A DNA stretch of 64,000 nucleotides from a phage: the sequence record PQ338057.1; one strand, given 5' to 3'. The notes under the pieces were generated by a model. It ran no database searches. It was not told the DNA's origin and was given only the letters and a program-made list of their open reading frames with translations. Positions 10,188 to 24,752 of the stretch are shown here, piece after piece. The translations under genes and the position numbers were made by a program. Numbering within the stretch: position 1 is the stretch's first letter; every line of letters begins with the position of its first letter.

Positions 10188-10789
10188 GGATTCACTCTCA
10201 TTGTGTCAATAACATGGACCGCCCCGCCTTCATGCGCGGTGCCACCGGAAATAATTGTTTCGTTGATATACGGATAGATCGTGATTTCTTCGCCAAGATA
10301 GCTGGCGGCTCCCACCCAATGCGGGCCGCTGGTCTGCAGGTTGATGGACATGCCGATCATGTGACGGCTGCATGGTTTGGCATCGCTTATCAGTCGCTCA
10401 AGTTCCAGATAGGTATCTTCAGTGATGCCCTGGTCCTGCACGCCGATATCCAGACGAAACGTGCCCGGTGTCTCTCCGGTCTGCCACCACTCAATAATGC
10501 GGATCAGAAAGCCGAACGGCTCCACCACCCGCCGCACGGCACTGGTGGTCCCTTTATGCTGATGAATATAAAAAGCATCCTTCACCACCTGGCGCTTGAC
10601 ACTTTCTGTCCAGTCCTCGTCCCAGCGATCCACAGAGAACGCCCAGGCGAGATAAGGCAGGAAACTGACCGGACAGGTTGCCGGATTCCACAAGTCACGA
10701 AGCGGCACCTGCAGATCAGAAATCCCGCTGCAGGTTTGCGCCAGTCGGCGCTCCAGTGGTGTTGAACCCGGTGGCAGCAGACTATTCAT
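10184..10789 (-). CDS. baseplate assembly protein gpI
   Basis: Similarity to P2 gpI (LWNPATCP...LPYLAWAFSVDRWDE); gene order J-I-H. Confidence 0.8.
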   Translation of the reverse strand: MNSLLPPGSTPLERRLAQTCSGISDLQVPLRDLWNPATCPVSFLPYLAWAFSVDRWDEDWTESVKRQVVKDAFYIHQHKGTTSAVRRVVEPFGFLIRIIEWWQTGETPGTFRLDIGVQDQGITEDTYLELERLISDAKPCSRHMIGMSINLQTSGPHWVGAASYLGEEITIYPYINETIISGGTAHEGGAVHVIDTMRVNP

Positions 10790-11690
10790 CCGTTCCTCCG
10801 TTGGTTACGCTCCACTGCGTACATGATGCCGCCTGTGTTTTGTTCAGGACCACATCCGCCAGAGGAGAAGCCAGCTCCACACGCTGCACACCCTCAACAT
10901 GCAAGGCGGCAAAGATGGCGCTACGGCGAATATCCCGACCAAGACGCGTCTGACTGGCGATGTACTTCTGCAGGCTGGCTTTTGCCGCTGCCATTACCGG
11001 CTCTGCTTCCGGTCCCGGATAGAGAAAAATGGTGGCTTCCACGCGATACGGGATGATTTCTGCGCTGCGAACCGTCAGACGGTCAGCCACCGGGCGGACG
11101 TTCTCACTGTTCAGGGCTTTTTCCACCACATCCAGCAGGTCTTTTTCTGCTGTTCCGTCGCCTTCACGGCTAAGGACAGTCAGTACCACCTCTGCAGGTG
11201 CCGGACTGGTTGCACTGGCATCCGCCACCCGACCGTCGGCGCTTCGGGCATGAAATTCATAGGCTGCAGTTGGCCCCGCAACTGAAAGCCCTTCAAAGGC
11301 TGCAGGCACACGCAGGCGTAACGCTTCATCGCTTTCCATCACAGCCGCAACGGGCGGCACAGCGTCATTATCAGCAGGCGTCACCGTCAGGCGTTTCACG
11401 TTGTAGTTGGCAGCGAGCTGGTCAAGATCGCCGCCCATCGCGTAAGCCACCATCACCGCCTGCGCGGCTTCGTTAATGCGCTGGCGCAGAAGCAACTCAC
11501 GGTAAGCATTCTCCTGCAGCAATTTGGTGACGGGTTCAGATTCCAGTTCCAGCGTGCGGATCACGGCTTCCTGCTCATCTTTCGGATGAAGCGCAACAAA
11601 TTCGGCCTTGCGTTCGGCAAGCAACGTCTCAAAGTCCGGCACATCGACAATCTGCGGCGCAGGCAACTGCGAAAGGTCAATCACTGCCAT
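10782..11690 (-). CDS. baseplate assembly protein gpJ (302 aa from MAVIDLSQL)
   Basis: Length and position match P2 gpJ; start at internal Met of track ORF. Confidence 0.8.
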   Translation of the reverse strand: MAVIDLSQLPAPQIVDVPDFETLLAERKAEFVALHPKDEQEAVIRTLELESEPVTKLLQENAYRELLLRQRINEAAQAVMVAYAMGGDLDQLAANYNVKRLTVTPADNDAVPPVAAVMESDEALRLRVPAAFEGLSVAGPTAAYEFHARSADGRVADASATSPAPAEVVLTVLSREGDGTAEKDLLDVVEKALNSENVRPVADRLTVRSAEIIPYRVEATIFLYPGPEAEPVMAAAKASLQKYIASQTRLGRDIRRSAIFAALHVEGVQRVELASPLADVVLNKTQAASCTQWSVTNGGTDE

Positions 11691-12036
11691 TCTCTGCTCC
11701 TGTTGATACGGAAAGGGAAACAGGCACACCGTTATTACGCCGCCCGGTCAGTCCCACCACCATTGAACCGTCAAAATTGCTGTTAATGGTGATGGAATCC
11801 AGCGTCAGCCGTGGCTCCCAGCGACTCAGCGCCACATACACTGCCGACATGACCTGCAGGCGTAACGCCGGATTTTGTGGCTGGTCTATCAGTGCCGACA
11901 GCAGGGAACCATATTCACGGCGAGCAATGCGGCTACCCTGCGGCGTCAGCAGAATGTCCCGCACCGACTGGCGCAGATGGTCAATATCAGTAATGACTTT
12001 GCCGCTGGTATTGTTCATCCCGCTATAAAGCGTCAT
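11677..12036 (-). CDS. baseplate wedge protein gpW
   Basis: 119-aa ORF between V and J; gpW-like. Confidence 0.75.
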   Translation of the reverse strand: MTLYSGMNNTSGKVITDIDHLRQSVRDILLTPQGSRIARREYGSLLSALIDQPQNPALRLQVMSAVYVALSRWEPRLTLDSITINSNFDGSMVVGLTGRRNNGVPVSLSVSTGAENGSD

Positions 12037-12611
12037 ACCGGGCCTCCGGTTGTATCGCCGCCTTTCAGGACGCCAGTATGCTGATGCGCATCAACCACGA
12101 TCCCGTTAGAACTCATCGCTCCGCCGCCCTGGGTAACGCCACCATTGATCACCACTTCGCTGTTAATGCGCGTGCGGTCAGCCTCCAGTACAAACTCACT
12201 GGTTTTCATGGTGATGTTATCAGCGGCCTCAATGACCATTGATTTGATGCCCCTGACATACCAGCGCCCGGTGGCGGGTTCGTATTCAAACCAGCCACCG
12301 TCAGGATGTTCTGTCACGCAGGCGTCCGCCGACGTCGACGGTGGTGCGAACTGATTCGAATAGACAGCGGGCAGCGCAAAGGCAGTCTCCAGATTGCCGC
12401 CCAGACTCAGCAGCACCACCTGCTCACCTTCCGATGGTCGCCACCATGTGCGGGCATTACCCGCGCGCAGCGTCAGCCAGCTGATCCAGTTGGTTTCAAG
12501 GTCGCCCGTTTTCACCCGACAAAGCCAGTTTTCCCGGTCCACTTCGGTGACTACACCTATGCGGATCAGATTGGTGATAAGGCGCATGATTTCGGTTAGT
12601 TGTGCGTTCAT
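12033..12611 (-). CDS. baseplate spike/assembly protein gpV (start at MNAQLTEIM)
   Basis: Position and similarity to P2 gpV; the N-terminal extension in the track ORF is likely spurious. Confidence 0.75.
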   Translation of the reverse strand: MNAQLTEIMRLITNLIRIGVVTEVDRENWLCRVKTGDLETNWISWLTLRAGNARTWWRPSEGEQVVLLSLGGNLETAFALPAVYSNQFAPPSTSADACVTEHPDGGWFEYEPATGRWYVRGIKSMVIEAADNITMKTSEFVLEADRTRINSEVVINGGVTQGGGAMSSNGIVVDAHQHTGVLKGGDTTGGPV

Positions 12612-12657
12612 AGATATATGATGACAGCTGAAAACTTGTTTATAACTTCTTGCAAAT

Positions 12658-12675
12658 TGTGGTATCGATGGTACA
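12658..12675. promoter_or_regulatory. TGT-N12-ACA dyad (Ogr/Delta-type late promoter element) upstream of V and of the divergent cargo ORF
   Basis: tgt ggtatcgatggt aca; P2-type late promoters carry this dyad (recall). Confidence 0.45.
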
Positions 12676-12714
12676 AATTGATAAAAGGATAAAAAACAAC
12701 CAATAGGTGGATAA

Positions 12715-13521
12715 ATGAGTGTTATGAATCCAATAAGTTCTAATATATTTAATGCTGAATTTTTAAACACCCCGGCAGCGGCACTTGCCGCATGGATTTC
12801 CATTATTGGAGCTGTTATAACTTTGGTGACGATAGTTATAAGAGCACTATTCAAATATAGAAAATCTCATGATGTAATTTTGAAAAAATCAGGAATACCT
12901 GCGTTTATATTAAATTTTTTTCTTATACGAATATCATTAAAAAGGCTGCCTACTATCACATGGGCTGAAAAATCAATCACGGTTCTCTTTTCACTTCTTT
13001 TTTTGTGTGCAATTTATATTTTTGGTCCAGTTTTCATCCAAGCCATTAGAACCCCACCAAATAGCACATTGCTTTATTGGATAAAGTCCGGTGAATCATT
13101 TTATATGTCAAAAAAACTGGCGACTGCAGCTACAATATTAACCACTCCTGATTGGGAAATATCAAAAGATGATTGCGAAGAGTCATCCTCTGCCAGTACA
13201 GAGAAGTACAAATCATTAACTATCGAACATAAAGAAATTCTTTGTAAACTACTAACCACTGATGAAGGGAATACTTACATTGATGAAGAAGTCAAGAATT
13301 TCGTTAAAGACAAATTCTTTATCTATTCCTTTGCCCCAACAACCATATTTATTCTATTATGGATTTCTTTGGGTTTTATACTGACCATTCACTATTCTAA
13401 AAAAGTTAGGAAATATATTCTGACTGAACAAAAAAATGCAATTCATTGGGCATATGGTGAATTCAAGACAGAAGGAATCTATTCAATATATCACGAGTTA
13501 GAACGTAAGACTCACCATTAA
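12715..13521 (+). CDS. AT-rich multi-pass membrane protein of unknown function (cargo gene between S and V)
   Basis: 268-aa ORF with GGTGG RBS; about four hydrophobic helices; markedly lower GC than flanking tail genes; opposite strand to the late operon. Confidence 0.7.
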   Translation: MSVMNPISSNIFNAEFLNTPAAALAAWISIIGAVITLVTIVIRALFKYRKSHDVILKKSGIPAFILNFFLIRISLKRLPTITWAEKSITVLFSLLFLCAIYIFGPVFIQAIRTPPNSTLLYWIKSGESFYMSKKLATAATILTTPDWEISKDDCEESSSASTEKYKSLTIEHKEILCKLLTTDEGNTYIDEEVKNFVKDKFFIYSFAPTTIFILLWISLGFILTIHYSKKVRKYILTEQKNAIHWAYGEFKTEGIYSIYHELERKTHH

Positions 13522-13909
13522 GACCCAACAAACGACGCTCTGCGTAACGCACTTCCGGTCCTTTGCGGCTGACGCGATCGCGCAGGCCATAATGGTGAAC
13601 GCGGGCAATGCGCTGCACCTTACTTTCAAACTGTACGCTGGCAGAGTCGGCGCTGGCGGCGGTTTTCAGGTATTTGGTGGTGCGCAGCTTTGCAAACATC
13701 TGACGTTTGATGCGGCCTTTTTTACTGCGCGCCGTGACCTTGCGCGGTTCATAACTGCTGCCATCTGGATTGCGCTGCATCCTGATATTCTGCTGCTGTG
13801 TCCGGCGCAGTTCCTGCGCCAGCTGGCGCATCATGCGGCTTCTTGCGACTGGTTCCAGATTCGCCAGTAAGGCACTAAGCCAGTCGTCCACCTTCTGCAG
13901 TTCAGCCAC
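13463..13909 (-). CDS. tail completion protein gpS
   Basis: 148-aa ORF; gene order R-S; P2 gpS-like. Confidence 0.7.
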   Translation of the reverse strand: MAELQKVDDWLSALLANLEPVARSRMMRQLAQELRRTQQQNIRMQRNPDGSSYEPRKVTARSKKGRIKRQMFAKLRTTKYLKTAASADSASVQFESKVQRIARVHHYGLRDRVSRKGPEVRYAERRLLGLNGESYVLTRDILNRFLLS

Positions 13910-14354
13910 GTTTCACCGTCCACATTTCTTCAGGTTCATCGGGTTCTGCTACAGCTTCAACGCTCGACACACTGCCGTCAGTGCTGACCAGCACACGTTC
14001 CGTCAGATGCAGGTTAAGGCTGATATCACAGACATCGTTGCGCAGAATATCCACCTCAAAGGTAAATAGTTTTTCCCGTAACGCCGGGTTATTGATGGCA
14101 TCGGGCTGGTTATCCCGCAGCCACAGCAAAACCGGGGCCATCAGCAGATTCTGGTCGCCGCTGAAATCCTCAATCACCGCGTTCAGGGTGTAACGGTACT
14201 CCCACGACATGGAGCTGGCCCCCGTGGCAACCAGCGAACCGTTATCCACAAACAGATGCAGTTTGTCCGGGTTATTGCGGACATAAGGCACCGCTTTATT
14301 GAGGGCGTGGCGCAGGGATTGTGGTTTGTTCACTGTTTCGCTCCTGACACGCAA
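13902..14354 (-). CDS. tail completion protein gpR
   Basis: 150-aa ORF; P2 gpR-like. Confidence 0.7.
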   Translation of the reverse strand: MRVRSETVNKPQSLRHALNKAVPYVRNNPDKLHLFVDNGSLVATGASSMSWEYRYTLNAVIEDFSGDQNLLMAPVLLWLRDNQPDAINNPALREKLFTFEVDILRNDVCDISLNLHLTERVLVSTDGSVSSVEAVAEPDEPEEMWTVKRG

Positions 14355-14586
14355 TAATCATGTCCACTTTGTCTGCACAGACCGCCCAGGCGGCCTCCGT
14401 TTCATCCAGCAACGCGTTCAGATCACCGTTAGTGCGCGGCGTTGCCTGATCCAGCCGACACGGCGTCACTCGCGGACAACCACTGACGGTAAGCTGTACC
14501 TCCGGTGAGTGCCGGACGTTCCCGCAGCCGGATAATGTCAGCAGGCAAAGGAGTATCAGCCCAGCGGCGTAAATCCTCGTTCTCAC
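14296..14586 (-). CDS. lysC: LysC (Rz1-like outer-membrane spanin lipoprotein), overlapping lysB and R
   Basis: Lipobox LLTLSGC; embedded out of frame in the lysB 3' end as in P2. Confidence 0.6.
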   Translation of the reverse strand: MRTRIYAAGLILLCLLTLSGCGNVRHSPEVQLTVSGCPRVTPCRLDQATPRTNGDLNALLDETEAAWAVCADKVDMIIACQERNSEQTTIPAPRPQ

Positions 14587-14857
14587 GTTTCAGTTCCTCG
14601 ATCCGGTGTTGTCGTTGTCTCAGCAGTGCACTGGTCTGTTCTGCTTCGGCATAGAGCCGCGCCTGCTCCCGGTTATTGGTTTCAGTCAGAATGGACAGGC
14701 TGATAAGCTGGCTGTTTTTCTTCGTCAGTTCCTGCGCTTTACTTTTCAGCGCCGCGCGCTGCGTTTCGATGGTGTGGCTGGCGCTGTTAAGCCGCCACGA
14801 CTGCCAGCCCAGCGCAACGAGTGCCAGCGCCACCACTACTGCCAGCGCACGCGTCAT
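14429..14857 (-). CDS. lysB: LysB (Rz-like inner-membrane spanin)
   Basis: N-terminal TM segment then coiled-coil-like region; 142 aa; P2 LysB-like. Confidence 0.7.
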   Translation of the reverse strand: MTRALAVVVALALVALGWQSWRLNSASHTIETQRAALKSKAQELTKKNSQLISLSILTETNNREQARLYAEAEQTSALLRQRQHRIEELKRENEDLRRWADTPLPADIIRLRERPALTGGTAYRQWLSASDAVSAGSGNAAH

Positions 14858-14993
14858 AGTCCAGCTCCTTTAAGGCACCAGGCCATCTCCCGCGCACGGC
14901 GGTTATCCAGCCCCTGATTAAACACACCTTTTACATAAACCCAGCGCGGCAACTGTCGGCACGCATCTGCCCAGCGCCGCTGATTGAGCAATT

Positions 14994-15746
14994 TCACCAG
15001 TGTGGAACTACAGGCATTGCCCGTTGCTGCTTCTGCAGAGCAGACTCCAGTTCAGACAGGCGTTCTTCCTGCTCAGACAGAGATTTTTCGGTTCGCGCGC
15101 TCAGGTTTTGCTGCTCAGTGGCGACCAGCTCCACGGCCTTATGCACATCAGAGAACCGGGCGTCATCGGACTGCTCTTTTTTGGTGAACAGCGCCGTGAC
15201 GCGGGAAAACAGGGACGGTTTGTCGTCCTGGACTTCCTCCAGTTCGATCACCGTTTCCTCTGCAGCGGTAAAGAGATTGGCAGGATTCTGCTTGCGGTTT
15301 GCCAGCGGGTTATGGGCTGCACTGGCGCTGAATGTCAGCATTTCAGTGCCCAGACTGGCAGGGTCATCAGTGGCAGCCAGGCCGACCAGGTAGGCTTTGC
15401 CCGTATCAGCGAACTTCGGGCTGACTTCCATAGAGGTGAATAATTTCTGGCCTTTTTTCACCAGTTCCACCAGGGACTCCGTTGGCTCAACGTCGGCATA
15501 CAGCGCCATCTTGCCTGCCAGCGGACCTTCCGTGATTTCCTCAGCAAACAGCGCCGTCACCTTGCCGTAGCGGTTAAAGGTGCTGTCCGGCAGATAAGAC
15601 TTGATGTGCTCAAGGTTAATCAGCGCGGTATACACCGCCGGGTTGTAGCTGGCTGCCATCTGTTCCAGCCATTCACGCTGGATTTCGCGTCCGTCGGTGG
15701 TGGCACCTTCCACCCCGATGCGAAAACGCTTTGCTTTCACTGTCAT
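14994..15746 (-). CDS. capsid scaffold protein gpO, probably 3'-truncated at a deletion junction
   Basis: N-terminal region resembles P2 gpO (FRIGVEG...INLEH...YLVGLAATDDPASLGTE); 250 aa against ~284 in P2 (recall); followed directly by lysB instead of N, M, L. Confidence 0.7.
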   Translation of the reverse strand: MTVKAKRFRIGVEGATTDGREIQREWLEQMAASYNPAVYTALINLEHIKSYLPDSTFNRYGKVTALFAEEITEGPLAGKMALYADVEPTESLVELVKKGQKLFTSMEVSPKFADTGKAYLVGLAATDDPASLGTEMLTFSASAAHNPLANRKQNPANLFTAAEETVIELEEVQDDKPSLFSRVTALFTKKEQSDDARFSDVHKAVELVATEQQNLSARTEKSLSEQEERLSELESALQKQQRAMPVVPHW

Positions 15747-15824
15747 GAGCCGTGCTCCGTTAAAAAAAACTTACTGGAGCCTTATGGTTGCGGTGATGGG
15801 GGTAGTGAAACAATGCGCGGTATT

Positions 15825-15842
15825 TGTACCGACAACCACACA
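15825..15842. promoter_or_regulatory. TGT-N12-ACA dyad in the divergent O / P intergenic region
   Basis: tgt accgacaaccac aca. Confidence 0.45.
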
Positions 15843-15888
15843 AACCGCAGGCGGGGAAAGCCTTCATTCAAGGCTGTAGGTTTGTGCC

Positions 15889-17655
15889 ATGAACACCACA
15901 CTGACACCCGCAGATCTCGATCCCCGTCGGCAGGCCATGCTGCTGTACTTTCAGGGATACCGCGTAGCCCGCATTGCTGAAATGCTGGGCGAGAAAGTTG
16001 CAACCGTTCACAGCTGGAAAAAACGCGACAAGTGGGGTGACTATGGGCCGCTGGATCAGATGCAGCTCACCACCGCCGCACGCTACTGCCAGCTCATTAT
16101 GAAGGAGCACAAAGAAGGGAAAGATTTCAAAGAGATTGACCTGCTGGCGCGCCAGTCGGAGCGCCATGCGCGGATCGGCAAGTTTAACAATGGCGGCAAC
16201 GAAGCCGACTTAAACCCTAACGTCGCCAACCGCAACAAAGGCCCGCGTCGTCAGCCGGAAAAGAACGTTTTCACCGATGAACAGATTGAGAAGCTGGAAG
16301 AAATCTTCCATTCCTCCATGTTCAACTACCAGCGCCACTGGTGGGAAGCCGGAAAAACCAACCGCATCCGCAACCTGCTGAAGTCACGCCAGATCGGCGC
16401 GACCTTCTATTTTGCCCGTGAAGCCCTGATTGACGCCCTGCTAACCGGGCGTAACCAGATTTTCCTTTCCGCCAGCAAGGCACAGGCCCACGTCTTTAAG
16501 CAGTACATCATCGACTTCGCCAAAGAAGTGGAGGTGGAGCTGAAAGGCGATCCGATAGTGCTTCCTAACGGGGCCACGCTGTACTTCCTCGGCACCAATG
16601 CCCGCACGGCCCAGAGTTACCACGGCAACCTGTATCTGGATGAATATTTCTGGATACCGAAATTCCAAGAGCTGCGCAAAGTGGCTTCCGGTATGGCTAT
16701 TCACAAAAAATGGCGACAAACCTATTTTTCCACGCCATCCAGCCTGACACACAGTGCTTATCCGTTCTGGTCCGGTGCGCTGTTCAACCGTGGGCGCAAC
16801 AAAGCCGACAAGGTGGACATCGACCTGTCCCACAGCAATCTGGCCCCCGGCCTGCTGTGCACAGACGGGCAATACCGCCAGATAGTCACCGTGGAAGATG
16901 CGGTGCGCGGCGGCTGTAACCTGTTCGACCTCGACCAGCTACGCATGGAGTACAGCCCGGACGAATACCAGAACCTGCTGATGTGCGAGTTCGTGGACGA
17001 TCTCGCGTCCGTGTTCCCGCTCAGCGAGCTGCAAGCGTGCATGGTGGACAGTTGGGAAATCTGGACCGACTTTCATGCACTGGCCCTGCGCCCGTTTGGC
17101 TGGCGCGAAGTGTGGATCGGTTATGACCCGGCAAAAGGTACGCAGAACGGCGACAGTGCCGGATGCGTGGTGGTGGCACCGCCAGCCGTGCCGGGTGGTA
17201 AGTTCCGCATTCTTGAGCGTCACCAGTGGCGCGGGATGGACTTCCGCGCCCAGGCTGACGCCATCAAAAAACTGACCGAGCAGTACAACGTGACCTACAT
17301 CGGCATCGACTCGACAGGTGTCGGCCACGGGGTTTACGAGAACGTGAAAGCGTTTTTTCCAGCCGTCCGGGAGTTTGTCTACAACCCCAACGTTAAAAAC
17401 GCCCTGGTACTCAAGGCCTACGACATTATCAGTCACCGTCGTCTGGAGTTTGACGCCGGACACACCGACATAGCGCAGTCATTTATGGCAATCCGTCGCG
17501 CCACCACCGCCAGCGGCAACCGCCCAACCTATGAAGCCAGCCGCAGCGAAGAAGCCAGCCATGCCGATCTGGCCTGGGCAACAATGCACGCACTGTTTAA
17601 CGAACCGCTGCAGGGCGAGTCCGCCAATACCAGCAATATTGTGGAGATTTTTTGA
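15889..17655 (+). CDS. terminase large (ATPase) subunit gpP
   Basis: 588-aa ORF; P2 gpP-like; precedes the portal gene. Confidence 0.85.
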   Translation: MNTTLTPADLDPRRQAMLLYFQGYRVARIAEMLGEKVATVHSWKKRDKWGDYGPLDQMQLTTAARYCQLIMKEHKEGKDFKEIDLLARQSERHARIGKFNNGGNEADLNPNVANRNKGPRRQPEKNVFTDEQIEKLEEIFHSSMFNYQRHWWEAGKTNRIRNLLKSRQIGATFYFAREALIDALLTGRNQIFLSASKAQAHVFKQYIIDFAKEVEVELKGDPIVLPNGATLYFLGTNARTAQSYHGNLYLDEYFWIPKFQELRKVASGMAIHKKWRQTYFSTPSSLTHSAYPFWSGALFNRGRNKADKVDIDLSHSNLAPGLLCTDGQYRQIVTVEDAVRGGCNLFDLDQLRMEYSPDEYQNLLMCEFVDDLASVFPLSELQACMVDSWEIWTDFHALALRPFGWREVWIGYDPAKGTQNGDSAGCVVVAPPAVPGGKFRILERHQWRGMDFRAQADAIKKLTEQYNVTYIGIDSTGVGHGVYENVKAFFPAVREFVYNPNVKNALVLKAYDIISHRRLEFDAGHTDIAQSFMAIRRATTASGNRPTYEASRSEEASHADLAWATMHALFNEPLQGESANTSNIVEIF

Positions 17656-18680
17656 TGGGAAAGAGTAAGAAAAACCGCGCTGCGGCGACGAACCAGATCC
17701 AGCATAAAAACCAAACTTCAGCCGAAGCATTCAGCTTCGGTGATCCCGTTCCTGTTCTGGACCGCCGCGAATTACTGGACTATGTGGAATGCGTAAAGAT
17801 GGACCGCTGGTATGAGCCACCCGTAAGTTTTGACGGACTGGCGCGAACATTCCGCGCCGCCGTACACCACAGTTCACCGATTGCAGTAAAGTGCAACATT
17901 CTGACCAGCACCTACATCCCTCACCCGCTGCTCAGCCAGCAGGCGTTTTCACGTTTTGTGCAGGACTATCTGGTTTTTGGTAACGCCTACCTGGAGAAAC
18001 GCACGAACCGATTCGGTGAAGTTATCGCCCTTGAGCCTGCGCTGGCAAAATACACCCGACGCGGATTAGACCTAGATACCTACTGGTTTGTGCAATACGG
18101 CATGACCACGCAGCCGTATCAGTTCACGAAAGGCAGCATTTTTCATCTGATGGAACCGGACATCAACCAGGAGATCTACGGCCTGCCCGGCTATCTTTCT
18201 GCCATCCCATCCGCCCTGCTCAACGAGTCCGCCACGCTGTTCCGCCGAAAGTATTACATTAACGGTAGTCATGCAGGCTTCATCATGTACATGACCGATG
18301 CCGCGCAGAACCAGGAAGATGTGAACAACCTCCGCAATGCGATGAAAAGTGCCAAAGGCCCTGGCAACTTCCGCAACCTGTTTATGTACTCGCCTAATGG
18401 TAAAAAAGACGGACTTCAGATTATCCCGTTGTCAGAAGTCACAGCGAAGGATGAGTTTCTGAATATCAAGAACGTGAGCCGTGATGACATGATGGCGGCA
18501 CACCGCGTGCCGCCGCAAATGATGGGAATTATGCCTAATAATGTCGGGGGGTTTGGGGATGTGGAGAAGGCTAGCAAGGTATTCGTAAGAAACGAATTGA
18601 TGCCCCTGCAGAAACGATTGCAGGAACTAAATAACTGGTTGGACGAAGAAGTGCTCAATTTTTCAACCTATGAGCTTTAG
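17652..18680 (+). CDS. portal protein gpQ
   Basis: 342-aa ORF; P2 gpQ-like. Confidence 0.85.
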   Translation: MMGKSKKNRAAATNQIQHKNQTSAEAFSFGDPVPVLDRRELLDYVECVKMDRWYEPPVSFDGLARTFRAAVHHSSPIAVKCNILTSTYIPHPLLSQQAFSRFVQDYLVFGNAYLEKRTNRFGEVIALEPALAKYTRRGLDLDTYWFVQYGMTTQPYQFTKGSIFHLMEPDINQEIYGLPGYLSAIPSALLNESATLFRRKYYINGSHAGFIMYMTDAAQNQEDVNNLRNAMKSAKGPGNFRNLFMYSPNGKKDGLQIIPLSEVTAKDEFLNIKNVSRDDMMAAHRVPPQMMGIMPNNVGGFGDVEKASKVFVRNELMPLQKRLQELNNWLDEEVLNFSTYEL

Positions 18681-18688
18681 TTTTAAAA

Positions 18689-18708
18689 CGAAGACCATTA
18701 GGTCTTCG
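18689..18708. terminator. hairpin cgaagacc-atta-ggtcttcg between convergent Q and the retron RT
   Basis: Perfect 8-bp inverted repeat overlapping the RT stop codon. Confidence 0.4.
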
Positions 18709-19660
18709 CTTTATTTAAAGGGTTCTTTCCATATTTTTTTTCTAATTTGCTAATATAAGTTATTAATCTCCTATGGCTTTTTGAATCCACACTTAAAATA
18801 AATGACAACCATCCCCTAACGTGTTCTATCTCAGAAGACTTACCGCAAAATATATGATGTATCTTTGCTCTAATTTCTTTATATTTTTCTCTACCTATCC
18901 CAACTTTCTCTTGTGAAATAACTAAACCTGTAACTTTCCTCTGACTACGAGGCCCACTAATACAAGTTTTTTTTGAGTTAATAACCAATCCTTCACTTGG
19001 GATTATAGAAAATAAAAAATCACGTGCTTTAACAACCTTTTTCATAGACTGTGCAGATAAGGTGAGATCATCGGCATATCTCGTATATATCAAGCCCCGA
19101 CTACCTGCATAACCCTGAATACGATAATCAAGTTTAGAACATATTAGATTAGCTAATTTAGGTGATGATGGAGCACCTTGTGGTAGCAGATTTTTATAAC
19201 AACATATTTTTGTCAAAACTGAAGATATTAGTCGATTATAACCAAGAGAATGGAACACTCCAAAAACTTTGTTAGCAGTTAAACTTGGGAAAAAATCCTC
19301 CAAATCAATATTCAGTATAAAGTTTGCCCCAATATGCGGGGTAGCATTATTCAAAATAGATTGGTGCTTTTCAAATCCAATAGAAAAAGGAGATGACGAC
19401 AGTTTATCTAAAATGTTACGTAGAACCCATCCTTGTAAGGCTTTAAGTTCTCGAGAAGGTTGGTAAATGGTTCTCATTCTCTTCTCTGGGCCTTTCTTTT
19501 CTACAGTGTAGATCCTATAGCGAAAATCAGCTGTATAGATTAACAACCGAAGTGTTTCAACAGATATGCGAGTCGCCTTAGACATGTCATGCAAATTGTT
19601 CATGACAGGTAGGCCGAGATTTCTCAATCTAAAAGTGTTCAAATATTCAGCGGATTTCAT
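18698..19660 (-). CDS. ret: retron reverse transcriptase (Retron-Eco1 / Ec86 RT), 320 aa
   Basis: YADD active-site motif (RYADDLTLS); sequence MKSAEYLNTFRLRNLGLPVMNNLHDMSKATRISVETLRLL recalled as the Ec86 RT; immediately downstream of msr-msd. Confidence 0.95.
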   Translation of the reverse strand: MKSAEYLNTFRLRNLGLPVMNNLHDMSKATRISVETLRLLIYTADFRYRIYTVEKKGPEKRMRTIYQPSRELKALQGWVLRNILDKLSSSPFSIGFEKHQSILNNATPHIGANFILNIDLEDFFPSLTANKVFGVFHSLGYNRLISSVLTKICCYKNLLPQGAPSSPKLANLICSKLDYRIQGYAGSRGLIYTRYADDLTLSAQSMKKVVKARDFLFSIIPSEGLVINSKKTCISGPRSQRKVTGLVISQEKVGIGREKYKEIRAKIHHIFCGKSSEIEHVRGWLSFILSVDSKSHRRLITYISKLEKKYGKNPLNKAKT

Positions 19661-19666
19661 GAAAGT

Positions 19667-19841
19667 TGCGCACCCTTACGTCAGAAAAAACGGGTTTCCT
19701 GGTTGGCTCGGAGAGCATCAGGCGATGCTCTCCGTTCCAACAAGGAAAACAGACAGTAACTCAGATTCAATGCAGGATGCCGAAACAACATCCAGAGGTT
19801 GACCTTAATGATAAACCTCTCGCTAAGGGTGCGCATACGGA
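19667..19841 (-). ncRNA. msr-msd: retron msr-msd non-coding RNA (Ec86): msr about 19749-19841, msd about 19681-19766, a1/a2 inverted repeats at 19824-19835 and 19667-19678
   Basis: Minus strand reads ATGCGCACCCTTAGCGAGAGGTTTATCATTAAGGTCAACC...; plus strand 19681-19766 reads TCAGAAAAAACGGGTTTCCTGGTTGGCTCGGAGAGCATCAGGCGATGCTCTCC..., the msDNA-Ec86 sequence as recalled. Confidence 0.9.
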
Positions 19842-20746
19842 ATCTTATCATAGTTAAATGTTGATTTTCTACGGTTTTCAAAATTCATAATCTCAAGCCG
19901 CAATCGGTCAAGTGTCTTTCTATCAAAGACGCTCCTAACATAGCTAGCCCCCAAAGCAGTGACCTGATAACCATCAGTCATTTGAAGTATTTTTCGTTCA
20001 TTTATTAGACGAGAAACAACGGATCTAACAATAATTTTAGATAAAACATCATCTTGCTTTATCGCTTTAAAAGCTAGTTCACACAGTGTGCGGTAGTTGA
20101 CACTATCCAGTAAATAGATACAAGGCAATAGAAACCGCTCTGCGTATAATATATTTCCAATATCTTTTGATACTTTATTTTCTTTCCTAACCTTCTTAAT
20201 AGATGCCATTAATTTTTTATATAATCGTAATTTTCTGGCAACATCAATAGATGAATCACACATTTCTTTTAGTTCATTTGAACTACAACGCAAAACAGAT
20301 TTTGAATTAAACTTACGCAACAGGCGAACAGGACCATAGTTAATAAAGCTACGTTTTGATTTAAATTTTGCATCTTGAATGCAAATCAACTTTCTCCTTA
20401 AGTTTTCATTATTAGAGAACGCACCAAGCTCTGTGAAAGACCCCGGACTTTCAGGAAATAAAATTATTACATCGACAGCTTCAGCCAGAATATTTTCTAA
20501 ACTTAAAAGGCTATGCTGCCCTTGACCAGCCAAAAGATCATCAAATAGATCTTCTGGATAAAATATATCAACATCACTGAACTTTGCTAAAAATTGTGAT
20601 AATTGATGACGCCAAGATTGATGATTAGCAACGTCACCACCACATAGAAAAATGGTTATTTTAATATTAGCTCCTCGATAGAAGCCTTTCTTTGTGAGAT
20701 GTCCTATAAGCTGTTGTTGCTGCTCATCGGTAAATTTTTTATTCAT
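19823..20746 (-). CDS. retron effector, nucleoside 2-deoxyribosyltransferase-like (NDT-like) protein, 307 aa
   Basis: Upstream of msr-msd on the same strand, stop codon inside the msr a1 region; Rossmann-like motifs (IFLCGGD, ILFPESPGSFTELG); AT-rich; NDT assignment from recall of Retron-Eco1, not verified. Confidence 0.75.
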   Translation of the reverse strand: MNKKFTDEQQQQLIGHLTKKGFYRGANIKITIFLCGGDVANHQSWRHQLSQFLAKFSDVDIFYPEDLFDDLLAGQGQHSLLSLENILAEAVDVIILFPESPGSFTELGAFSNNENLRRKLICIQDAKFKSKRSFINYGPVRLLRKFNSKSVLRCSSNELKEMCDSSIDVARKLRLYKKLMASIKKVRKENKVSKDIGNILYAERFLLPCIYLLDSVNYRTLCELAFKAIKQDDVLSKIIVRSVVSRLINERKILQMTDGYQVTALGASYVRSVFDRKTLDRLRLEIMNFENRRKSTFNYDKIPYAHP

Positions 20747-21218
20747 AATCTCCCCGCTTTTTTTTCTACTTTATACATCAAGTTATGAATAGATCCAATC
20801 TCCATACCACATGGCGCGCGCTCGTATCCCCGCCACGCCTGCCCGCTTTATGCAGTGGTTTTCATGCACATGCATAACATGAGCAAAAGCCCGCCAGTTC
20901 TGGCGGATCTGAGCAAAGACGATCCTCAATCGATCATGCGATTTCATGCAGCATAGTCATGCACTGTCAAGGAAGTGAAAATCCGTATCTGAATGGCCAC
21001 TTGAAAAACGGATCATACGGGTTTACAAAGATGAATGTTCGCTGTGAACGGGAAGCGGAAGTTAACTTTCAGATAACATAATCCATATGCACGAGAACCT
21101 CTAAAATAGAATGGGACACCTAAGCGGGGTACTTACAACGATTCTTTCCATATTCACAGTTAACACTCTGTTTGGCGTATTTTTATTCAAATAGCAAACA
21201 CCAATAAAAGGAGTTTCC

Positions 21219-21554
21219 ATGAACAATATTCCCCCTATACCACAGTTAGGAATTTATGTCTCAAAAATCGATCCCACCCTACGTATCACTGTAACCGATG
21301 TTGATATTGTTGATGGTGAGGATGATTCTCCTGATGATGAATTGTTTTATTTAGTCCACTGGATCGAGGGGGAAGATGAAAGTGATATGACAGCAATGGG
21401 ATTTGAGCTAGACCCAGTAGAGTGGCAGGCTTTCGTTGAATCTGAGCAATTAGTGTTTGAGCGTGATCCGTACATGGATTCAATCCCCGAAAATTCAAAC
21501 TTGGCAAAGATTCGGGATTTTCTCATGAAGACTAAACAGAATGATCATTCGTAA
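21219..21554 (+). CDS. small acidic protein of unknown function (111 aa)
   Basis: AAAGGAG RBS 7 nt upstream of ATG; very D/E-rich; located in the accessory slot next to the retron. Confidence 0.6.
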   Translation: MNNIPPIPQLGIYVSKIDPTLRITVTDVDIVDGEDDSPDDELFYLVHWIEGEDESDMTAMGFELDPVEWQAFVESEQLVFERDPYMDSIPENSNLAKIRDFLMKTKQNDHS

Positions 21555-21746
21555 GTGTAAGCATCCATCAGGAAAATGGTTTTGTAAGTGAATCATCAAC
21601 TTTTAGAGAGTCTCAGACACTCCCACTTCTGCTTCTGACACAAAGCGGACGATCACTTATCAAAATAACCGCCCACCTTACGCCTTATTTCACTCATTGC
21701 CCAAACTAGCCCCCATCAGAATGAATCCTCCTGGGGGCAACATTTC

Positions 21747-21980
21747 TTAATGCAGCCAGCTGTCGTCCTCCCACACCTTCTGCATAATTTTCATCACTTG
21801 TTTTCTTTCTTCATCCAGTTGCAGTCCGGTTAGTTCCACACCGTTAGAGCTACCTTTGCGAATGCGAATTACCGTTTTGGGATACAGGGGGCGCAGATTG
21901 CGGTAAAGCTCGGATTCAAGGGCGTCCAGGGTAGACTGGCTAATCTTCTGCTCTTTATCGATCATTATTTCAATGCGCAT
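21747..21980 (-). CDS. DinI-family protein (77 aa from MRIEIMIDKEQ)
   Basis: Resembles DinI (MRIEV...ALE.EL...QETWE..DW); GAGGTGA RBS; start at internal Met of track ORF 21747..22052. Confidence 0.7.
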   Translation of the reverse strand: MRIEIMIDKEQKISQSTLDALESELYRNLRPLYPKTVIRIRKGSSNGVELTGLQLDEERKQVMKIMQKVWEDDSWLH

Positions 21981-21990
21981 AAAAGTCACC

Positions 21991-22179
21991 TCAGCTGATG
22001 ACATCCATTGAGCGGTTGTATTCGTGGCTTCTGATTTTTGCCATGAGTTCATCAGTCAATTCAGAAACCCACTGCAGAGCCAGCCCCTTCTCTTCATCAC
22101 TACACTCACTAGCCGCTACAAGCTTAAGAAAAAAATCAATGCGCTGGAGCTTCAAAGACTCCAAAAAATAGTCCTGCAT
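21991..22179 (-). CDS. small protein (62 aa), first gene of SOS-controlled operon; possible Tum-like antirepressor N-terminal part
   Basis: AGGAGG RBS 6 nt upstream; LexA box overlaps the promoter; stop is 10 nt before the DinI-like start. Confidence 0.55.
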   Translation of the reverse strand: MQDYFLESLKLQRIDFFLKLVAASECSDEEKGLALQWVSELTDELMAKIRSHEYNRSMDVIS

Positions 22180-22219
22180 CTTTCCTCCTATGACACCAAA
22201 ACAATACTGTATACATAAC

Positions 22220-22239
22220 CACTGTTTATATTTACAGTA
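22220..22239. promoter_or_regulatory. LexA (SOS) box CACTGTTTATATTTACAGTA
   Basis: CTGT-N8-ACAG with AT-rich spacer, about 40 bp upstream of the 22179 start codon. Confidence 0.7.
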
Positions 22240-22331
22240 TATAATAATCTTACTGATGTAAAACGTTTTTTTACGTTCATCGGCCTGATATGCCTGGTAT
22301 TATTAAGAGCACGAATTGTCAACCCGCGTAA

Positions 22332-24752
22332 TTAATACAGGTTCCGCCACTTATCATCTTCCTTCAGACGCTGGTTCCGATAGAAGATACGCAGGCCTGC
22401 TCCTGACGGAATACTGCCGCCGCGAAGGAGCAAATCGACTTCTTTCTCGCTGCCATCAAATCCCCTGGACTTCAGTTCATAGACGAGCTGCTGTCGCTGA
22501 TGGTCTGTAATTCGCTGTTTGTAGTCTTTACGCCGTTTCGGTTTCACCTGGCGTAACCTTGCAGCCAGTTCCCGGCGCTCTTTTTTGCTCATACTGTGCA
22601 GGTAATTGTGCAACTCCTTGTCATTCATACGGGTAATATCCGTTCTGGAGTCCCCATCAGCTGATTTGTCTTTCCCTTGTTGGTTCAAATTTTCAGCAAG
22701 GGGACAGTTATTGCCACGAGTCCAAGGGGCGCAAGCGCCCTGGTCGGCTGCCGCCTCCTGAACGTCAACGGCCTTACGAACCATTTTCCACTTCACCGCA
22801 TGAGTGCAGATCTTGCCCTCTGCAATGGGTGACCAGATGCCATAAATACGAATACCGTGATCGCCATATGCGGTCGGTTCTTCGTTGATTTCATAAGCAG
22901 TTCTGATGAGGTGATATTTGCGGGGAACCAGTACGCCGCCCTGCTTCATGATGTAGGTGGCAAAACAACCAGCATCAGCAGCAGCCAGGATTGCATCAAG
23001 ACGCGGGTTATCCAGTACCGGCGCACCTGCTTTTTTGTCACCCTGTTGCCTTGCCGCCTGACCAGCCAGCAATCGCAGTTCACGGTAAGCCTGACGCCCC
23101 GGAATGCCAAAGAAGCGGAATTGCTGAACACGATGCAGAGACGCCCAGGCATTAACGTATTCAGCGTTATCACGCAGGGATTTACCCGTTTCCTTGCTGA
23201 TCTCCCCAGCCAGACCACGCCCGTCAATGTTCTTACTGATGTATTTCGCGATATAGCTTGTTGGCGTACCTTTGCGCGGGTTTATCAGCTCAGACTTAAA
23301 GCGTGGTCCCGTGTTATTGCCCAGCTCCTCGCGGTCTTCACGGATGGCAAACTTACGCAGTAATGCAGTGATGGCGCGGCGGTCTTTTTTACGCATGAAA
23401 CACATGAGATGCCAGTGCACAGTACCGTCATGATGCGGCTCAGCTACCCGCACGCCATACCAGCGCAACTCGGCTTTATGCATAGCCTTACGAAATGCAG
23501 CAAACATGCCGACCAGATAATCGCTACTTTGTCTTACCGTCGCGTTTGTCCAGGTCGGGTTTGGTCTGCCGTTATTGAGCGTGGAATGGAAACGCGACGG
23601 ACAGGTGATAGTGTAGAAAACGGCACAGTCACTGCGCATTTCCGCGATAAGCTCCAGACCTTTAACACAGGCCATCATCTCATTGCGGCGATGCGCCGGG
23701 TTGCTGCTGCTGGCGTTTACCACATCTTCCATATCCAGCGTGTCGCCGTCTTCGTTCACCAGTTCATGAGAACGAAAAAACTCCAGCGACTTACGGCGCT
23801 GCTCACGTTTATGCATCACGGCTTCATAGCTGACATAGGGGGATGCTTTTTTGCTGACCAGGCAGACAGCACGCAACTGCTCTTCCCGCCATTCGCAACG
23901 CATCTTCCATAATTTCCGATACCACCAGTCGGCACACAACATACGCGCCAGCGAACCCGGGATGAGTTCATAGAGCACTGGTTTGCGGCGGTTTATTTTC
24001 CGACGAAGTTTCTCAAACGCAGGCGGGATAACATCCAGACGCAGGGTTTCCGCTGCCACCTTTTCCCATGTCTTGCGGATTTCTTCTGGCTTAACGTCAT
24101 CGGTGGCATACAAATCACCACAAGCGTCCTCAAGACACATGCTCATATGCGCTGCTACCAGGGTGGACAGGCGTTTCACCTGATCCTGGCTCATTTCAGG
24201 CAGGATCAGCAGACCCTCCAGCCCTTGATGGCTTGCCATAAAACGGAAAGAAACAGATAGCTGACTGTCACGTACACAATCCAGTCGCTCCAGACATGGC
24301 TTAATCGTCTCACGCAAATAGCGGGAATAAGCCTTTGGCCTGCCCAGGCTGCTGAAGTATTCAATACGTTGCATCAGCGGCTTGCTGATATGGGAAGGCT
24401 GGGCGTTTACGTCCGCCAGAATGACCATGTCCGGATTAAAACGCTGCTGCTCATGCGCCAGCTTTGCCCGGCTAATGAGCTTATCCTGCTCCATTTCGCG
24501 CTGGACAGGATCACGGGATTCATTAAAGAAATAACGCTCCCAGACCTGCTCACTCAGTGCCTCGCGGCGCAGTTGTTCCTGCTCGTTATCGGCAGCGTAC
24601 AGAGTGATCAGGTTTGAAAGTGCAGACTCCGGCGCAACTTCCGCCGGGTCCAGATAAGGGTTAATGGCCTTTTTCGAGCCGTTCCATGAAAATGCTGCGG
24701 CGGCCTCGTTAAAGCCGCTGCAATAGTTCATATCGTCATGACTCATACACAC
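22332..24752 (-). CDS. replication initiation protein gpA (rolling-circle nicking endonuclease)
   Basis: 806-aa ORF; P2/186 A-like, with HUH-like motif (TVHWHLMCF) and tyrosine region ([13 protein letters not shown]). Confidence 0.85.

Follow-up and report, generated by a model that had tools for sequence, protein, structure and literature searches.

Results

A complete retron locus between the portal gene and gene A

We analyzed a window of 64,000 nucleotides of phage DNA (sequence record PQ338057.1), and all positions given below refer to that whole stretch. Between the portal gene and replication gene A, the window carries two protein-coding genes and one noncoding RNA (ncRNA), which together make up a retron locus.

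17652-18680, plus strand: portal gene (open reading frame and annotation)
18698-19660, minus strand: retron reverse transcriptase (RT) gene, 320 aa (open reading frame and sequence identity)
19667-19835, minus strand: msr-msd ncRNA of Retron-Eco1, 169 nt (exact match to the published wild type)
19823-20746, minus strand: effector gene, 307 aa, NDT-like, STIR-type N-glycosidase with a C-terminal DNA-binding domain (open reading frame and sequence identity)
22332-24752, minus strand: replication gene A (open reading frame and annotation)

A preliminary description, made from the sequence alone, had placed effector, ncRNA and RT in this order on the minus strand, and the open reading frames (ORFs) at 20746-19823 (307 aa) and 19660-18698 (320 aa) bear it out. 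All three components lie on one strand with the effector upstream, matching the architecture of type II-A3 retrons, the type named "Nuc_deoxy+Retron" to which Ec86 is assigned (PMC7736814); "effector-ncRNA-rrt" is also the order given for Ec86 in a recent preprint (10.1101/2023.08.16.553469). The locus had further been described as more AT-rich than the flanking phage genes. Indeed, the GC content of the retron (18698-20746) is 0.355, compared with 0.548 in the terminase-portal region, 0.539 in the cos block and 0.506 in the DinI-A region, while the stretch between the two ORFs is structured and comparatively GC-rich.

Comparison with structures in the Protein Data Bank (PDB) identified both proteins exactly. 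The RT was 100% identical over residues 1-320 to chain 7v9u_A ("RNA-directed DNA polymerase from retron EC86"), and the effector was 100% identical over residues 1-307 to chain 7v9x_C ("Retron Ec86 putative ribosyltransferase/DNA-binding protein"), both of which come from cryo-EM work. The next-best PDB relative of the RT was the Ec67 RT (4.5e-34), followed by other retron RTs. The RT carries the YADD motif reported earlier, at residues 195-198 (window 19078-19067), and it matched Pfam RVT_1 (2.9e-25), PADLOC RT_II-A (7e-128) and the NCBIfam model retron_St85_RT (287.6 bits, cutoff 235); its best PADLOC matches were all retron RT models. The effector retains the catalytic residue E106, and it matched the PADLOC model NDT_II-A best (2.7e-94) and NCBIfam NF038232 with 176.6 bits (cutoff 100). 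The best PADLOC models for the locus as a whole were PDLC02941 and PDLC02930.

RefSeq labels both proteins as members of the "retron St85 family" and places the start of the RT 25 codons too far downstream, so that 25 N-terminal residues are missing. These are annotation conventions and do not conflict with the identification as Ec86. An N-terminal helix of the Eco1 RT is reported to be required for Eco1 dimerization (PMC12673091), and the shortening by 25 residues may be of use to annotators.

The ncRNA is identical to the published Retron-Eco1 ncRNA

As a reference for the ncRNA we used the sequence in supplement file 5 of PMC11754653, which has 169 nt and is divided into msr, msd and a2. 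The preliminary description had recognized the msr-msd of Ec86 in this region; the published wild-type sequence was found at 19667-19835 on the minus strand, with 169 of 169 positions matching, no mismatches, and 0 matches expected in shuffled sequences. Within it, the following elements were located, all on the minus strand.

19824-19835: a1 inverted repeat (TGCGCACCCTTA), a perfect 12-nt repeat with 19667-19678
19823: priming (branching) G in UAGC, directly after a1 (position from the sequence)
19775-19793: msr P3 hairpin with a UUU loop and an 8-bp stem (predicted fold)
19680-19765: msd template for the 85/86-nt msDNA (5'-GTCAGAAAAAACGGG...), located by means of the published "msd" segment
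19698-19702: CCAGG in the RNA sense, CCTGG in the msDNA stem; Dcm site and sole CCWGG of the ncRNA
19667-19678: a2 inverted repeat (TAAGGGTGCGCA), pairing with a1

The a1/a2 repeats, the UAGC priming G, the P3 hairpin with its UUU loop and the msd hairpin were taken as retron RNA hallmarks from PMC11754653, in which P3 is described as the element recognized by the RT. A minimum free energy fold of the ncRNA reached -81.5 kcal/mol (z = -8.0 relative to shuffled sequences) and contains the a1/a2 stem, hairpins P2 and P3, and a long msd hairpin, the arms of which form an imperfect pairing of 25 nt each (19695-19719 and 19724-19748).

Of the limits proposed earlier for the ncRNA (19841 to 19667), the 3′ end was exact, but the 5′ end had been set 6 nt upstream of where a1 begins in the published sequence. 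The overlap between effector and ncRNA that those limits implied is nonetheless real, and amounts to 13 nt: the final 13 nt of the effector ORF, stop codon included, are the initial 13 nt of the ncRNA. The stop codon TAG occupies 19825-19823, and its last base is the priming G, a small point that is possibly useful to annotators.

A scan of 18000-22500 with the covariance models of Rfam release 15 returned no match, even at E <= 1. We attribute this result to the coverage of the library, because the exact published ncRNA sequence is present. Full-text literature searches returned no match for a 21-nt msr string, and primers only for the 12-nt a1 string.

The names used by RefSeq and NCBIfam for the "retron St85 family" could be read as pointing to a retron of the St85 (Retron-Sen2) kind, type II-A1, whose RT belongs to the same broad clade and whose effector is likewise NDT-like with a DNA-binding domain. 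However, protein and RNA are 100% identical to those of Ec86, the order effector-ncRNA-RT is that of II-A3, and the St85 name is a family-level label. The comparison with a type II-A retron in the related Klebsiella phage 4LV2017, which we group with the type II-A1 retrons, points the same way. The best PADLOC models for that retron are PDLC02939 and PDLC02928, which differ from the two found for the present locus. Moreover, its effector and RT genes abut (2546/2548), and an ncRNA therefore cannot separate them as it does in Ec86. On the strength of exact identity and gene order we rejected an St85-type retron, for which we see practically no chance.

Both proteins and the ncRNA are thus identical to published Ec86 (Retron-Eco1) sequences, and nothing in the sequence counts against this identity. 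The preliminary description had taken the locus for a known system rather than a new one, and that judgment was correct: the Ec86 locus was already known, and nothing in the retron itself is new. The recognition of a known defense system from raw sequence, with near-exact coordinates, provides a calibration point.

Candidate promoter and terminator sequences

Signals that might delimit transcription of the retron were found on both sides of it.

20770-20798, minus strand: candidate sigma-70 promoter, TTGGAT / 17-nt spacer / TATAAA (found by eye)
18689-18708, both strands: GC-rich, terminator-like hairpin between the convergent portal and RT genes, including the RT stop codon

The candidate promoter lies within the AT-rich 67 bp that separate the cos block from the ATG of the effector gene, and may drive the retron operon. 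A scan for consensus promoters found 7 sites, compared with 9.0 expected from shuffled sequences, and left 20770-20798 unlisted because its rule demands that the -10 hexamer end in T. The Ec86 unit cloned in published work included its native promoter ahead of the effector gene (10.1101/2023.08.16.553469), which is consistent with the site of the candidate. We infer that effector, ncRNA and RT are co-transcribed as a single operon.

At the other end of the retron, the hairpin at 18689-18708 is followed by CTTTATTTAA on the plus strand, where the scan listed it, and by TTTTAAAA on the minus strand. It could terminate both the RT transcript and the convergent portal transcript. The equivalent site after the portal gene in P2 and 186 has the tQ/tW terminators.

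The retron sits between cos and the portal gene

Rousset et al. (2022) described a defense hotspot of the P2 family between gpA and gpQ homologues, close to cos (PMC9122126). The assignment of the retron to the slot between portal gene Q and gene A held, with the portal gene at 17652-18680 and gene A at 22332-24752, and fits the definition of this hotspot (PMC9122126). Three further features describe the surroundings of cos.

20814-20965, minus strand: conserved cos block, upstream limit of the retron cargo (comparison with related phages)
20839-20821, minus strand: cohesive-end homologue within the cos block
21219-21554: acidic 111-aa ORF in the other variable interval, on the gene A side

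The position of cos was supported by several observations. The single match to the P2/186 cohesive-end consensus in the window is at 20825-20839 on the minus strand, the 13-mer GGCGTGGCGGGGA at this site is identical to the start of phage 186 cos, and an alignment places the P2 cos region at 20877-20814 (E = 9e-7). In the window, the space between cos and the portal stop codon is taken up by the retron; in P2 and 186 this space measures about 170-180 bp and holds only a terminator.

The retron had also been said to occupy the position where P2 carries tin/old. This is right insofar as published work regards the whole cos-proximal region between gpA and gpQ as a single hotspot, with retrons among the cargo (PMC9122126), but it does not hold as a literal position. 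In P2, old and tin lie between gene A/orf91 and cosR, on the gene A side of cos; the retron shares their hotspot but differs in position, because it lies on the portal side. Like the retron, old and tin are accessory anti-phage cargo, but their proteins and mechanisms are unrelated to it.

Three related phages, whose flanking genes are 92-95% identical, match the window up to about 18610-18650, at 20814-20965 and again from about 21740. The cos block is 85-90% conserved in them and both of its flanks are not. Because these relatives match only outside and at the cos block, we distinguish two variable intervals flanking cos, with the retron in the portal-side one. Klebsiella phage 4LV2017 has its different type II-A retron in the portal-side interval, and the other relatives have a Hypoth_Ymh/HEPN-like or an AIPR/AbiU protein there. 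The placement between cos and the portal gene, not on the old/tin side, is possibly useful for mapping phage defense hotspots.

The window matches E. coli B and includes its prophage

The retron and its flanks are 100% identical to those of BL21(DE3), REL606, E. coli B and derivatives. Retron-Eco1 of E. coli B/BL21 agrees with the present locus in the RT (320/320 aa), the effector (307/307 aa), the ncRNA (169/169 nt), the gene order, the flanking portal gene and the genomic DNA (100%). When window positions 1-45000 were compared with E. coli B strains, the segments 1-18600 and 20900-45000 were 100% identical to REL606, B and ATCC 11303. BL21(DE3) has a deletion that reduces gene A to a fragment and removes the segment from gene A through cII, whereas the window keeps this segment and has an intact gene A ORF of 806 aa, as in REL606. 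Because gene A through cII is intact, we assign the window to the REL606/B/ATCC 11303 type and not to BL21.

When complete E. coli genomes were queried for the retron alone, 48 of 5426 carried it, at 99.6-100% identity; 44 of these are laboratory strains of the B lineage and four are natural isolates. E. coli B is the native host lineage of Ec86, and finding the retron there again adds nothing new.

The RefSeq annotation of REL606 puts the retron in a 186/P2-like prophage, which lies between ybjL and rcdA and, in window coordinates, has ogr (about 6030) at one end and the integrase (about 29500) at the other. One natural isolate, 20A24 from wastewater, has this retron with a single substitution over 2.4 kb; there it belongs to an apparently complete prophage at the same chromosomal site. 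Relative to 20A24, the prophage in the window lacks the genes for capsid, small terminase, head completion, holin and lysozyme, as well as those from tail sheath to D. The prophage setting of the preliminary description is correct as to the 186/P2-like element, but that element is a deletion-riddled remnant rather than an intact phage. Portal gene, cos and gene A are intact, and the deletions of the prophage end outside the retron.

Proposed mechanism and activity of the locus

Ec86 is among the best-characterized retrons, with published cryo-EM structures, trigger and effector chemistry, and is a standard genome-editing tool. The present analysis established which three components make up the locus and how they are ordered, together with its RNA hallmarks, Dcm site and genomic context; for the synthesis of msDNA, the formation of filaments, the triggering by Dcm and the hydrolysis of NAD(P)+ we rely on the literature on exactly this sequence.

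On this basis, one minus-strand transcription unit starting upstream of 20746 would give rise to mRNAs for effector and RT and to the 169-nt msr-msd RNA. Folding of the RNA would pair a1 (19835-19824) with a2 (19678-19667). The RT would bind the P3 hairpin with its UUU loop, prime from the 2′-OH of G 19823 and use the msd template (19680-19765) to make an 85/86-nt hairpin DNA, which would stay joined to the msr RNA as msDNA. The complex of RT and msDNA would then bind the N-glycosidase effector in filaments and keep it at low activity. Upon infection, a phage-encoded Dcm would methylate CCTGG in the msDNA stem, and the freed effector would hydrolyze NAD(P)+ and related nucleoside derivatives, such that the infected cell would no longer support phage growth.

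Production of msDNA has been reported for this exact sequence (PMC11754653; PMC12673091; 10.1101/2023.08.16.553469), as has expression from the chromosomal locus in B strains (PMC11754653; 10.1101/2023.08.16.553469), and the literature on II-A3 describes anti-phage activity that depends on all three parts (PMC7736814; 10.1101/2023.08.16.553469). Filaments of RT-msDNA and effector, and NAD(P)+ hydrolysis following Dcm methylation, are described in two papers that summarize Wang 2022, Carabias 2024 and Wang 2024 (PMC12673091; PMC13376987). The downstream chemistry is debated, with NAD(P)+ hydrolysis, possible DNA ADP-ribosylation and depletion of adenine derivatives put forward in PMC12673091 and 10.1101/2023.08.16.553469. 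In the same preprint, the effector-ncRNA-rrt unit with its native promoter was cloned from BL21(DE3) and conferred defense, escape mutants of phage K42 mapped to dcm, which identified the K42 Dcm as the trigger, and changing 5′-CCTGG-3′ of the msDNA to AATGG abolished defense; expression of Dcm affected native BL21(DE3) but not an Ec86 deletion strain (10.1101/2023.08.16.553469).

The decayed state of the prophage raises the question of whether the retron is a silent relic, that is, a non-expressed leftover of a heavily deleted element. Many genes of the 20A24 prophage, which is otherwise nearly identical, are indeed missing from it, and AT-rich cargo (GC 0.355) has a composition that is often silenced by H-NS, as is generally known and as the abstract of 10.64898/2026.09.05.749240 indicates. 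Against this stand the intactness of the three components and their identity to the sequences used in functional work, the deletions that stop outside the retron and leave portal gene, cos and gene A intact, and the activity of both the native-promoter unit and the native BL21(DE3) locus, the latter as judged from its Dcm sensitivity and the loss of that sensitivity in the deletion strain (10.1101/2023.08.16.553469). Because the sequence is intact and identical and activity of the native locus has been published, we consider a silent relic highly improbable. We are instead nearly certain that retron Ec86 (Retron-Eco1, type II-A3) is present here at its native position in a defective 186/P2-like prophage of E. 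coli B, as a three-part abortive-infection system that resembles toxin-antitoxin systems.

E. coli MG1655 is dcm+. We considered and dropped the notion that only dcm-negative hosts, E. coli B among them, tolerate Ec86, as MG1655 was not reported to be harmed until phage Dcm was induced (10.1101/2023.08.16.553469).

Organization of the hotspot and spread of the retron

The retron may chiefly serve either the phage or the host. If the phage is the beneficiary, the retron would be superinfection-exclusion cargo of an intact P2/186-like prophage against competing phages, and E. coli B would have it by chance, through decay of the prophage, and not as an adaptation of the host. The same retron, in the same slot and at the same chromosomal site, occurs in the apparently complete prophage of 20A24; the slot carries other defense cargo in related phages; and the hotspot literature reads such cargo likewise (PMC9122126). 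Among the 48 retron-positive genomes of the 5426 searched, the retron was always in this type of prophage in the cases inspected (two of the four natural isolates). We give this reading an even chance. It is no exclusive alternative to the identification of the locus as a defense system of E. coli B, because protecting the lysogen protects both parties, and the two are compatible.

Retrons as cargo beside cos are also known from other members of the P2/P4 family, namely the Ec67 and Ec73 retronphages, the latter on P4-like phiR73 (PMC9122126). These differ from Ec86 in retron type, effector and host element: Ec67 is an RT-Toprim fusion, and Ec73 resides on a P4-like satellite.

The 111-aa ORF at 21219-21554 had no match in Pfam, PADLOC, NCBIfam or the PDB; its sole match was phrog_17127, a family of unknown function. 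A single-sequence AlphaFold model of this ORF reached a pLDDT of 63, a quality insufficient for a fold search. FDAARGOS_433 retains both retron and cos block but has three different genes in the other interval, and this arrangement suggests that the two intervals flanking cos may change independently. We tentatively propose, as a possibility that we rate below even, that the gpA-gpQ hotspot of 186-like phages consists of two independently exchangeable slots flanking a cos block of about 150 bp, with Ec86 as cargo of the cos-portal slot, a prophage of the 20A24 type as an active "retronphage" that spreads Ec86, and the 111-aa ORF as an independent accessory gene, possibly of counter-defense function.

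A conserved cos block between two variable slots

The cos site of the prophage lies with retron Ec86 (Retron-Eco1, type II-A3) to one side and the gene-A side to the other, and Ec86 therefore fills the interval between cos and the portal gene.

20814-20965, cos block; cohesive-end homologue at 20839-20821, minus strand

Whereas this interval measures ~170-180 bp in P2 and 186, in the window it is occupied by the retron. P2 differs further in that its old and tin genes are located across cos from the interval that holds Ec86 in the window. The conserved cos block is flanked by two variable slots. In a related phage, Klebsiella phage 4LV2017 (L006), the same cos-portal slot carries a type II-A retron other than Ec86.

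L006 1617-3600, type II-A retron of Klebsiella phage 4LV2017, in the cos-portal slot

The NDT-like effector gene of this retron directly abuts its RT gene, and the best PADLOC models for the two are PDLC02928 (NDT-like effector) and PDLC02939 (RT).

The second variable slot of the window contains a small ORF.

21219-21554, plus strand, AT-rich ORF of 111 aa

The encoded protein is strongly acidic, with a pI of 4.05 and a net charge of about -19, and matches phrog_17127, a family without assigned function, while searches of Pfam, PADLOC, NCBIfam and PDB yielded no match. AlphaFold prediction from the single sequence gave a poor model (pLDDT 63). A role as a DNA mimic or in anti-defence is only a guess. 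The ORF accompanies Ec86 in both E. coli B and E. coli strain 20A24; in FDAARGOS_433, which has Ec86 and the cos block, three other genes are found in its place.

Gene boundaries within the Ec86 locus

The effector ORF and the ncRNA have 13 nt in common (19823-19835), and the priming (branching) guanosine of the msr is the G of the effector TAG stop codon (19823). No Rfam release 15 model detected the Ec86 msr-msd in window 18000-22500, even at E <= 1. In RefSeq the RT begins at an internal Met and is 295 aa long (18698-19585), in contrast to the 320 aa of the published and PDB Ec86 RT. The omitted N-terminus corresponds to 19586-19660; according to the literature, this region contains a helix that Eco1 dimerisation requires. 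At the other end of the RT gene, its stop codon falls inside a hairpin.

18689-18708, GC-rich hairpin of 8 bp where the portal and RT genes converge

T-runs follow the hairpin on both strands, and by sequence it looks like a candidate bidirectional terminator.

Prophage state and other carriers of Ec86

The 186/P2-like prophage of the window (~6000-29600) is defective. Several genes of the 20A24 prophage are missing from it: those for capsid, small terminase, head completion, holin and lysozyme, and the tail sheath-to-D genes. An extra deletion in BL21(DE3), from the 5' part of gene A through cII, is not present in the window. NZ_CP029371.1, deposited as "Escherichia coli strain C, cow's milk", matches the window at 100% identity over the 45 kb tested, a stretch that takes in both the B-specific defective prophage and Ec86. 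The strain may belong to the B lineage and not be E. coli C.

Strain 20A24 (NZ_CP147044.1; prophage region at locus 1-32600) is a natural wastewater isolate whose Ec86 shows 1 substitution in 2.4 kb and occupies the same slot, at the same ybjL/rcdA site, as in the window. The prophage holding it is apparently complete and may be a still-active Ec86 "retronphage". Both prophages also carry a gene inserted on the strand opposite its neighbours.

~12715-13521, plus strand, DUF6216-family gene flanked by the baseplate V and virion-morphogenesis genes

Since this gene is present in 20A24 and absent from FDAARGOS_433, its site is probably a further accessory (moron) slot.
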